From Escherichia phage EC.P1, in sequence record PQ657772.1: a DNA stretch of 64,000 bases, one strand, 5' to 3'. Below, piece by piece: positions 53,630-54,854 of this stretch. The notes beneath the pieces are model-generated. The model did no database searches. It was given only the letters and a program-made list of their open reading frames with translations, and was not told the DNA's origin. Every line of letters starts with the position of its first letter. The stretch's first letter is position 1. Both the position numbers and the translations under genes were made by a program.

Positions 53630-54378
53630 TTGTATGAACGGAACCCTTCAGGTAAACCAGGTAGATTCTCTAACCCTTCGTTCGCATTCACTAGCTTTAC
53701 GTCATAATCATCACTGAAATCATCCGTAGCTAGTTTACGCCCCATGTCTCTAACGAAGTTGTCAATAATTTCTTCTTCGTCATTGCCTGGATGACCTTCC
53801 GCTTTTAACTTTTTCCAAAAGTATTCATTATAATCAAAAACAAATTCAACTTCATTTGTTTCTGGATTAAGTACTACATCCAAATCAATCCAAGGTTCTT
53901 TACGTAAAGTAAAGATTTCCTTTGAATACTCTTGTTGTGTAATCTCTTCATAACGATATGCAAACTCGATAGCTTTAAGACGTTTGTCATCACCATCAGG
54001 CATTAGTTCGATTACTTCCATATCATACTCTTTTTGAGTAATTGCACCAGTACTTAATTTAGCATCAAGTAATTTTACATTATACTCATCACGGGTAATC
54101 TTGGAATACTTCAATTGTACATCTGCCTGTGCTATTAGATAATCAAGAGTTTCTAATACATTGTATTTCTTTTTGATATCCAACTGTGCTACATCAACTT
54201 CATATGGTGTTAGATATGTAAGTTCTGCAACTAACATATCAGCTTCATAATCATCGTTATAGTAGTATGCTTTCGCAATCTCTTTCGCTTTACCAGAAAG
54301 TCCCCAATGAGCGGGGACCATCCAGAAAGGAATAAACCTTTTTTTAGCCATTTGATTTCTTACCAAAAATTTCTTCAA
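53626..54378 (-). CDS. hypothetical protein (250 aa)
   Basis: ORF; start ambiguous (three candidate ATGs). Confidence 0.45.
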   Translation of the reverse strand: MKKFLVRNQMAKKRFIPFWMVPAHWGLSGKAKEIAKAYYYNDDYEADMLVAELTYLTPYEVDVAQLDIKKKYNVLETLDYLIAQADVQLKYSKITRDEYNVKLLDAKLSTGAITQKEYDMEVIELMPDGDDKRLKAIEFAYRYEEITQQEYSKEIFTLRKEPWIDLDVVLNPETNEVEFVFDYNEYFWKKLKAEGHPGNDEEEIIDNFVRDMGRKLATDDFSDDYDVKLVNANEGLENLPGLPEGFRSYK

Positions 54379-54646
54379 TTTTCATCACATAATATGTGTC
54401 TTCACCACCACCAAGATCTTCAGTGATAGGAGTGTTTAGTGATGAACGACCGAATACAACCATATCACCAACACAAATATTATGTTCTGCAATTTGCCCA
54501 TTAGGTAGTACTTTACCTTCACCAACTGAAATCACCATACCAACACATGGTGGTTCCACGTTTCCTAGGATAATACCACCAGTACTTTTATTCTGTGCTT
54601 CAATTTGACGAACCAGTACATAATCGTTAATCATTTTAATTTTCAT
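54344..54646 (-). CDS. groES: Cpn10 / GroES co-chaperonin homologue
   Basis: MKIKMINDYVLVRQIEAQNKSTGGIILG...VGEGKVLPNGQI..VGDMVVFGRSS..YYVMKIEEIFG collinear with GroES; start set to ATG 54644-54646 with GGAGG SD. Confidence 0.75.
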   Translation of the reverse strand: MKIKMINDYVLVRQIEAQNKSTGGIILGNVEPPCVGMVISVGEGKVLPNGQIAEHNICVGDMVVFGRSSLNTPITEDLGGGEDTYYVMKIEEIFGKKSNG

Positions 54647-54647
54647 A

Positions 54648-54854
54648 TCAGTAACCTCCAGTGTTTGCAAACCATTTACCACGGAAATAAAGATTAGCAC
54701 CTTTATCACCAGGGGTAAAAACTTCCAACTTCATAGTCTTTTCACCATTACATTGAGGACAATCATGAGGTTCTTCACGATTGGCAATTTTTACAATCTT
54801 TTCTAAACTGTGTTTACATTCTTCTTTTTCACAACGATATGTATATAATGGCAT
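54648..54854 (-). CDS. FmdB-family zinc-ribbon protein
   Basis: MPLYTYRCEKEEC ... HDCPQCNG matches MPIYEYRC..C....CP.CG; AAGGAAG SD. Confidence 0.5.
   Translation of the reverse strand: MPLYTYRCEKEECKHSLEKIVKIANREEPHDCPQCNGEKTMKLEVFTPGDKGANLYFRGKWFANTGGY

Follow-up and report, generated by a model that had tools for sequence, protein, structure and literature searches.

Introduction

The phage co-chaperonins T4 gp31 and RB49 CocO depart from bacterial GroES in the two parts of the molecule that shape the folding cage. The mobile loops of gp31 have 22 residues compared with 16 in GroES, and the protein has no roof loops (PMC6318259); the roof hairpin is deleted in both gp31 and CocO (PMC5649160), and these loop and roof features are credited with making the cage larger and more open for the capsid protein (PMC6318259, PMC5649160). 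Among the RaK2-like jumbo phages, two GroES-like open reading frames (ORFs) have been described in Pectobacterium phage CBB, for which the motif ATAAATA was also predicted as a late motif (2017, PMC5259590). Here, we analysed a stretch of 64,000 nucleotides from Escherichia phage EC.P1 (PQ657772.1), hereafter called the window, which holds two Cpn10-like genes on its minus strand: GroES-1 (54344..54646, 100 residues), which lies between an FmdB-type zinc-ribbon gene and a virion structural gene, and GroES-2 (5766..6092, 108 residues).

Over region 53000-57000, the window shares 99.9% identity with Escherichia phage fEgEco12 (375 kb) and about 83% with the Asteriusvirus group (121Q, PBECO4 and G17), and the phage is thus a RaK2/121Q-like jumbo myophage of Escherichia coli, from a group that carries T4-like replication and morphogenesis genes. 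We consider it likely that this phage makes two different heptameric Cpn10 lids, GroES-1 and GroES-2, which would most likely cap the host GroEL, and that GroES-1 belongs to a clade-wide three-gene cassette that would be expressed late, past the terminator of the neighbouring sliding-clamp gene.

Results

Homology and architecture of GroES-1

We compared GroES-1 (MKIKMINDYVLV...GGIILGN...VGDMVVFG...) with family profiles and with known structures. The protein matched the Pfam model Cpn10 (PF00166) over profile positions 1-92 of 93, with an E value of 1.1e-16 and 61.1 bits (cut-off 21.1), and the PHROG family phrog_3188, 'co-chaperonin GroES', with an E value of 9.9e-27. A profile of the GroES-1 family searched against the PDB retrieved GroES and Cpn20 chains at 1e-17 to 1e-12, and the AlphaFold model, with a predicted local distance difference test score (pLDDT) of 78, gave 30 best Foldseek matches that were all Cpn10 proteins. 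These results also settle a prediction of the earlier note, a first reading of the same DNA, by which both ORFs should be found by a Cpn10 profile: both are, although the second one only narrowly (61.1 and 22.6 bits against the cut-off of 21.1). A sequence check found every element described in that note at its coordinates on the minus strand, and the protein matches are not accounted for by chance.

In a five-way alignment, E. coli GroES is 33% identical to GroES-1. The roof hairpin of GroES-1 is full-length (GEGKVLPNGQIAEHNICVGD), and its mobile loop consists of GGIIL followed by a conserved VEPPCVG, being 2 residues shorter than the E. coli loop. The Gly and the Ile of the loop motif are invariant or nearly so in both phage families, as GGIIL in GroES-1 and as GGIVL in GroES-2; the mobile loops are modelled with low confidence in both proteins (pLDDT 51-65). 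In the Escherichia and Klebsiella lineages GroES-1 also carries a C-terminal insertion. The protein therefore resembles bacterial GroES/Cpn10, as represented by E. coli GroES (PDB 1aon, chain O), in its end-to-end alignment, in the loop with a glycine and a hydrophobic tripeptide, in the complete roof and in the beta-barrel core, but unlike the bacterial gene it has no groEL neighbour and is placed between the zinc-ribbon gene and the virion-protein gene. From sequence and model together, GroES-1 is predicted to be a Cpn10 with a roof that has diverged from bacterial GroES. A recent capture of the host groES gene was also considered and is ruled out by the identity to the E. coli and Salmonella proteins, which is only 33-37%.

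A conserved cassette of zinc-ribbon, co-chaperonin and virion-protein genes

The gene directly upstream of GroES-1 (54648..54854, minus strand) encodes a protein of 68 residues that the earlier note had assigned to the FmdB type, an assignment upheld by matches to Zn_ribbon_8 (PF09723; E value 6.4e-11, 42.5 bits, cut-off 34.4), to TIGR02605, 'FmdB family zinc ribbon protein' (44.1 bits, cut-off 31.3), and to phrog_13665 (2e-39). The FmdB models cover residues 1-43, starting at the initiator methionine, and the likeness to the family (TIGR02605 CxxC_CxxC_SSSS, PF09723) resides in these 43 N-terminal residues and in the four cysteine ligands C8, C13, C32 and C35. These ligands are invariant in 11 homologues, as is the C-terminal tail, and they are arranged as Cx4C...CxxC, so that the first motif of the phage protein is Cx4C and not the CxxC of the family. 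FmdB proteins typically carry a degenerate, serine-rich tail, the 'SSSS' of the model name, and the tail of the phage protein is not of that kind: its residues 46-68 (FTPGDKG..YFRGNWFANTGGY) are rich in aromatic residues and glycine instead of serine, and lie outside both the Pfam and the TIGR models. In Erwinia phage Hallingskeid (L009:1590-1790) the zinc-ribbon ORF is intact and unannotated, and the annotated start of the neighbouring GroES coding sequence is over-extended upstream into it.

The two genes are packed as tightly as the earlier note had described, with the single base 54647 between the stop codon of one and the start codon of the other (...GGAGGTTAC TGA T ATG...). Moreover, the last codons of the zinc-ribbon gene, encoding T-G-G-Y, provide the GGAGG ribosome-binding site of GroES-1. 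At the other end, the GroES-1 stop overlaps the start of the third gene (53626..54351, minus strand) by 8 nt in the annotated coordinates, and an overlap is present at 6 of 6 junctions when the window and five related loci are compared. This third gene encodes a protein of 241 residues that matches phrog_13349, 'virion structural protein' (7e-111), in agreement with its annotation in fEgEco12 and CBB; Pfam and NCBIfam gave no match to it. The abutting and overlapping stops and starts suggest that the genes of the cassette would be translationally coupled.

The arrangement extends well beyond this phage. In all 16 viral contigs with a close homologue, the GroES-1 gene directly follows a zinc-ribbon homologue on the same strand, and GroES-1 is in turn followed by a homologue of the 241-residue virion protein in each of the annotated relatives that were examined. 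The gene order zinc ribbon, GroES-1, virion structural protein is invariant across the clade. Outside it, the search for zinc-ribbon/Cpn10 pairs found as its sole outlier a weak one (L030, 27% identity), on a contig of 2.2 kb without a Cpn10 gene. Strict pairing with a Cpn10 gene is, to our knowledge, no described property of the FmdB family, and the searchable literature yielded no link between FmdB zinc ribbons and chaperonins or GroES in phages.

GroES-2 and its operon

The earlier note had also proposed that a second, divergent co-chaperonin is encoded at 5766-6092, and PHROG assignment, profile comparison and predicted fold all back this proposal. The Pfam Cpn10 match of GroES-2 is borderline (22.6 bits against 21.1, E value 1.1e-4) and covers only profile positions 4-65 of 93, and the NCBIfam GroES models gave no match to it. 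The family comparison was clearer: GroES-2 belongs to phrog_931, 'head morphogenesis' (E value 3.7e-20), the family that also receives T4 gp31 (E value 3.7e-50, with a query whose sequence was verified against the T4 gene 31 product at 100% identity) and that GroES-1 does not match. The family profiles of GroES-2 and GroES-1 matched each other with 89% probability. The predicted models of both proteins show the GroES beta-barrel fold, and the best structural matches of both are exclusively co-chaperonins.

Compared with E. coli GroES in the five-way alignment, GroES-2 lacks 9 residues where the roof hairpin would be and has 4 extra residues in its mobile loop, and gp31 shows the same pattern of roof deletion and loop insertion at the same place. 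The mobile-loop comparison with the host protein that had been proposed from the DNA alone thus separates the two phage proteins, one having lost 2 residues and the other having gained 4. Since GroES-2 shares with gp31 both the membership of phrog_931 and the roof-deletion and loop-insertion pattern, we regard it as the predicted counterpart of T4 gp31 and RB49 CocO. The contrast that the earlier note had drawn with a non-homologous T4 gp31 overlooks that the second gene of the phage falls in gp31's own family, and that the phage has a gp31-type lid besides its roofed lid of the GroES type. GroES-2 nevertheless differs from gp31 and CocO in several respects. Its score clears the Pfam Cpn10 threshold, and the E. 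coli GroES motif GGIVL is retained; its gene adjoins a clamp-loader gene and is always preceded by a conserved gene for a protein of about 114 residues; and a role in capsid folding is putative for it.

The upstream partner gene (6096..6440, minus strand), recognised by its PHROG match and synteny, encodes a protein of 114 residues of the family phrog_14844 and ends 3 nt before GroES-2. A homologous gene of about this size precedes GroES-2 in 4 of 4 genomes examined, with 45% identity over 56 residues in PA5oct and 36% in Atu_ph07, and the clamp-loader gene follows directly in the window, in CBB and in Atu_ph07; the PA5oct gene at this place is annotated as hypothetical. Small partner gene and Cpn10 gene constitute a second conserved cassette. 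Ahead of this operon, a promoter scan identified a sigma-70-type promoter (6486..6515, minus strand) with TTGAAA, an 18-nt spacer and a TG-extended TATAAT, which with 11 of 12 positions matched in addition to the TG scored highest in the region, and a terminator scan found an intrinsic terminator 3' of GroES-2 (5728..5754, minus strand) with 12 paired positions followed by a T-run. Expression of GroES-2 at an early or middle stage of infection is probable, given the location of the gene in the replication module, the sigma-70-type extended -10 promoter and the terminator after the gene. Extended -10 elements of the TGnTATAAT type also stand ahead of many other DNA-metabolism genes, often without a good -35 (for example at 36767, 30360, 23867, 52065 and 41614), which suggests a distinct class of early or middle promoters.

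Distribution of Cpn10 types and the presumed GroEL partner

The two phage lids are distributed differently. The RaK2-like group of enterobacterial and Xanthomonas phages was the only one with GroES-1 homologues, and GroES-2 homologues were found in RaK2-like phages, in PA5oct-like Pseudomonas phages, in Agrobacterium phage Atu_ph07 and in a Sinorhizobium jumbo phage; a whole-library profile search gathered 577 cluster representatives of the GroES-2 family. A third Cpn10 type is represented by CBB_131 of Pectobacterium phage CBB (L013:9408-9689), which is 44% identical to Salmonella GroES, has its roof deleted and adjoins a tyrosyl-tRNA synthetase gene. This type is present in CBB, in GAP32 and in Yersinia, Erwinia and Serratia phages, and the search for it returned no Escherichia or Klebsiella phage records. 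A local hidden Markov model search of the 213 ORFs of the window found no third Cpn10, only GroES-1 and GroES-2. Judged by these matches, the clade would hold up to three Cpn10 types, and the EC.P1 phage two of them.

With regard to the chaperonin itself, a tblastn search with E. coli GroEL, in a collection that included 33 Escherichia relatives, yielded 252 phage records, and none of the ten organism names listed for them, each with at least 7 records, is Escherichia. A phage-encoded GroEL partner was therefore considered and set aside, none being found in this phage group by tblastn. As no GroEL homologue was found in the Escherichia phages of the group, the host GroEL is the presumed partner of both lids.

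Five metagenomic proteins of 200-362 residues that the GroES-2 profile search brought up (P0084, P0085, P0100, P0135 and P0161) contain two or three Cpn10 domains, like the plastid Cpn20. A roofed Cpn10 is fused to one of the GroES-2 type in both orders (P0100 and P0135), GroES-2-type domains are repeated in tandem in the others (P0084, P0085 and P0161), and one Cpn10 fusion was found in three independent sources. Such fusions hint, in the manner of a 'Rosetta stone' and weakly, at cooperation between different Cpn10 types.

The terminator of the sliding-clamp gene

Directly upstream of the cassette lies the gene for a T4 gp45-like sliding clamp (54922..55653, minus strand), which corresponds to g359 of fEgEco12, 'sliding clamp protein', and has sigma-70-like promoter matches ahead of it at 55750-55721 and 55680-55652. 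Between the clamp gene and the zinc-ribbon gene there is a hairpin, GGGGAAC-ATGGA-GTTCCCC (54893-54911, minus strand), that the earlier note had treated as an element of the GroES pair. The terminator scan reports it at 54892..54912 as a stem of 8 bp with a loop of 5 nt, followed by AAUUUUUGAU. The same hairpin is annotated in G17 as an ARNOLD terminator, and all the relatives examined have a GC-rich hairpin with a T-run downstream of the clamp gene. This conservation behind the clamp gene identifies it as the predicted intrinsic terminator of that gene, and its attribution to the GroES pair is abandoned. A bidirectional terminator hairpin (53596..53627, both strands), shared with the convergent structural genes, closes the cassette at its other end, and G17 carries an annotated terminator at the equivalent position.

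The GGGGAAC hairpin occurs twice in the 64 kb. The second copy (11213-11231) follows the gene for the topoisomerase large subunit and agrees with the first at about 33 of 35 bases, 5' flank included (TAATATA[A/G]A[T]TAATGGGGAACATGG[A/T]GTTCCCC). In the second copy the flank reads TATAGATT and not TATAAATA. The two hairpins are a duplicated terminator cassette, and only the copy upstream of the zinc-ribbon gene reads TATAAATA. A role of the hairpin as a dedicated operator of the GroES pair was also considered and is rejected: there are only these two copies, both stand after stop codons, both are terminator-like and they share their 5' flank.

A probable late-promoter motif

A motif scan located TATAAATA, which resembles a T4-type late promoter, at 54914..54921 on the minus strand, directly after the clamp stop codon and ending 2 nt before the hairpin. 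Enrichment of the motif, which we tried as support for a promoter, is not seen, with 3 copies in the window versus 7.5 expected, and only the positions of its shorter form ATAAATA are informative. ATAAATA occurs 13 times versus an expectation of 29.0 +/- 5.8 and is depleted (13 or more copies in 100 of 100 shuffles), and 10 of these 13 copies are sense-oriented, each no more than about 120 nt ahead of a start codon. The genes behind them mostly encode structural or tail-fibre proteins, or belong to head operons with such genes, and two (g352 and g411) are of other kinds. The copies at 52161-52167 and 52224-52230 (plus strand) stand ahead of the convergent structural genes, which start at 52277, and their position is conserved in 16 of 16 related contigs, being the strongest evidence in the window that ATAAATA is a real promoter element. 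In addition, the 99.9%-identical genome encodes a gp55-like late sigma factor (g336; phrog_12791, 1e-152; phrog_234, 1.5e-16). Because of the depletion, the placement, the conserved copies at 52161 and 52224, the gp55-like sigma factor and the prediction made for CBB, ATAAATA very probably serves these phages as an element of late promoters, and a late promoter at the GroES-1 cassette is plausible.

Two further copies have unusual settings. On the minus strand, a strong terminator hairpin at 16200-16275 (-21.2 kcal/mol, z -6.2, followed by U7) has ATAAATA in its loop (16237-16243), and downstream of it come g415 and two structural genes, g416 and g417; it looks like a promoter inside a terminator, from which late transcripts would hold the 3' arm only. 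Another copy (37842-37848, minus strand) falls within a virion structural gene, 177 nt from its annotated start at 38019; with that start, the gene overlaps the preceding one by 65 nt. Its translation may in truth begin further downstream, which would make the copy another late promoter.

Previous annotation of the two genes

Both GroES genes were already known, since public annotation and literature predate this analysis, and several deposited phages encode proteins with 100% identity to the two. In fEgEco12, g359 is annotated as a sliding clamp, g360 as a CxxC-CXXC-SSSS domain protein, g361 as co-chaperone GroES, g362 as a virion structural protein and g423, 48 kb from g361, again as co-chaperone GroES. 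GroES-like genes had been recorded in RaK2-like phages as CBB_131, CBB_268, GAP32_262, gp58 and gp615 of 121Q, and g361 and g423 of fEgEco12; in other records GroES-2 is named 'chaperonin' or 'head morphogenesis'. The two ORFs of the CBB paper correspond to the GroES-1 type (CBB_268) and to the third, host-like and roofless Cpn10 (CBB_131), and the GroES-2 homologue of that phage (CBB_330) is annotated as hypothetical. Neither the PA5oct omics paper nor the fEgEco12 genome paper mentions chaperonins or promoters. What is added here is the assignment of GroES-2 to the gp31 type, the description of GroES-1 as roofed but divergent, the clade-wide extent of the three-gene cassette, the reading of the hairpin as a terminator, and a late promoter that is plausible in two lineages.

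Discussion

In the reading that we favour, two distinct lids, the roofed GroES-1 and the roofless GroES-2, would cap the host GroEL. The gp31-like GroES-2, with its longer loop and without a roof, would be produced in the early or middle phase from its sigma-70-type promoter. Transcripts of the clamp gene would mostly end at the GGGGAAC hairpin. Late transcripts of T4 begin some 6 nt past the motif, and at the same distance from TATAAATA those of this phage would start inside the 5' arm of the hairpin. The whole hairpin has a free energy of -13.6 kcal/mol, and with the 5' arm truncated only -2.1 kcal/mol of structure remains, so these transcripts would escape the terminator and the cassette would be expressed late, alongside the structural genes.

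Several observations weigh against this reading, and some of them bear on the lids themselves. The earlier note had called GroES-1 a canonical GroES homologue; its membership of Cpn10 stands on the Pfam match, but 'canonical' overstates the case for a protein with 33% identity to the E. coli one that remains far below the NCBIfam GroES cut-offs of 96-136 bits (best 54.7 versus 120 bits). Likewise, VEPPCVG, the second half of its mobile loop, has no resemblance to any characterised GroES. For GroES-2, a direct hhalign comparison of its profile with the single gp31 sequence was weak (22% probability, E value 9e-4), and its profile did not retrieve PDB 1g31 at the sequence level. The major capsid protein gene has 1176 nt, for about 391 residues, and T4 gp23 is larger, at about 56 kDa; with a capsid protein smaller than gp23, an enlarged cage is not obviously needed. 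The two proteins presumably act as co-chaperonins, and the support for this function comes from sequence and models.

The remaining objections concern the timing. The proposal of a late-type promoter at the cassette gains from the positions of ATAAATA in the window and from the gp55-like sigma factor, but the motif is present upstream of the cassette in only 1 of the 16 related contigs (L014, of the 121Q type), plus G17, and absent in the other 15, so that TATAAATA at this place is confined to two lineages. In 13 of the 16 contigs a phosphoesterase gene is inserted between the clamp terminator and the zinc-ribbon gene, and none of these 13 has ATAAATA within 2.5 kb upstream of the cassette. 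As the 5' flank of the hairpin, including its TATA-like bases, is duplicated at 11213, the exact TATAAATA at 54914-54921 could in part be an accident of the repeated terminator cassette. Finally, the T-run of the hairpin is offset by AAA, which makes the efficiency of termination uncertain.

The order of the cassette admits a simpler explanation, which we regard as a real possibility, although we would not bet on it: GroES-1 would be a co-chaperonin, and the zinc ribbon, perhaps a small nucleic-acid-binding or regulatory protein, and the virion protein would be unrelated to it and merely co-transcribed. Genes commonly abut or overlap in all parts of the window, the FmdB family lacks an established function and, in the searchable literature, a link to chaperonins, and the phosphoesterase gene that joins the zinc ribbon/GroES-1 unit in most relatives indicates that unrelated genes can sit there. 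Simple packing sits less easily with an order that is unbroken in the 16 contigs and in all annotated genomes examined, despite identities down to about 50% and gain and loss of the gene upstream, and with a zinc-ribbon gene whose last codons carry the GroES-1 ribosome-binding site. A more ambitious proposal makes the zinc-ribbon protein an accessory of the chaperonin system that, for example, delivers or holds the virion protein or modulates the binding of GroES-1 to GroEL, with the roofed and the roofless lid serving one GroEL for different clients, at different times or in mixed heptamers, and each lid gene having its own small partner, the zinc ribbon in one case and a g422-like protein in the other. 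Taken as a whole, we find this scheme doubtful.

Two other alternatives concern the lids themselves. Plastid Cpn10 and Cpn20 form mixed heptamers, and GroES-1 and GroES-2 could similarly co-assemble, tuning the opening of the roof and the affinity for GroEL. The rare metagenomic fusions of roofed and GroES-2-type Cpn10 domains in both orders, together with the tandem repeats, would fit such mixing, but they are singletons or near-singletons on short contigs and may be artefacts of assembly or gene calling; the two phage genes are 48 kb apart under different predicted promoter types, and the PA5oct-like and Atu_ph07-like phages have GroES-2 only. We therefore judge co-assembly to be unlikely. 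It is more improbable still that one or both proteins have been repurposed, either using the GroES fold without GroEL, as an assembly scaffold or a virion-associated protein, or acting as inhibitors that divert the host GroEL. Both families keep the GroEL-binding signature of a glycine and three hydrophobic residues in a flexible loop, and their structural matches point only to co-chaperonins. The CBB record likewise keeps CBB_268, 'co-chaperonin GroES', and the zinc-ribbon homologue CBB_267, 'hypothetical protein', apart from CBB_269-271, each a 'structural protein'.

Two separate lids on the host GroEL thus continue to be the reading that we favour. That the phage encodes two GroES proteins adds nothing new as such and will be of little surprise to a specialist; the leads are the possible partnership of the zinc ribbon with GroES-1 and the coexistence of two lid architectures. 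In one phage, in which no GroEL homologue was found, a roofed lid and a gp31-like roofless lid occur together, constituting a natural experiment. Each lid gene stands in a conserved pair with a small uncharacterised protein, which offers a way to test lid architecture against client specificity on a single GroEL, and the GroES-1 cassette allows a chaperonin-linked role of the FmdB-type zinc ribbon, a widespread family, to be probed. Moreover, the position of the late motif just before or inside terminator hairpins suggests a simple way in which late transcripts may ignore the terminators that stop earlier ones.

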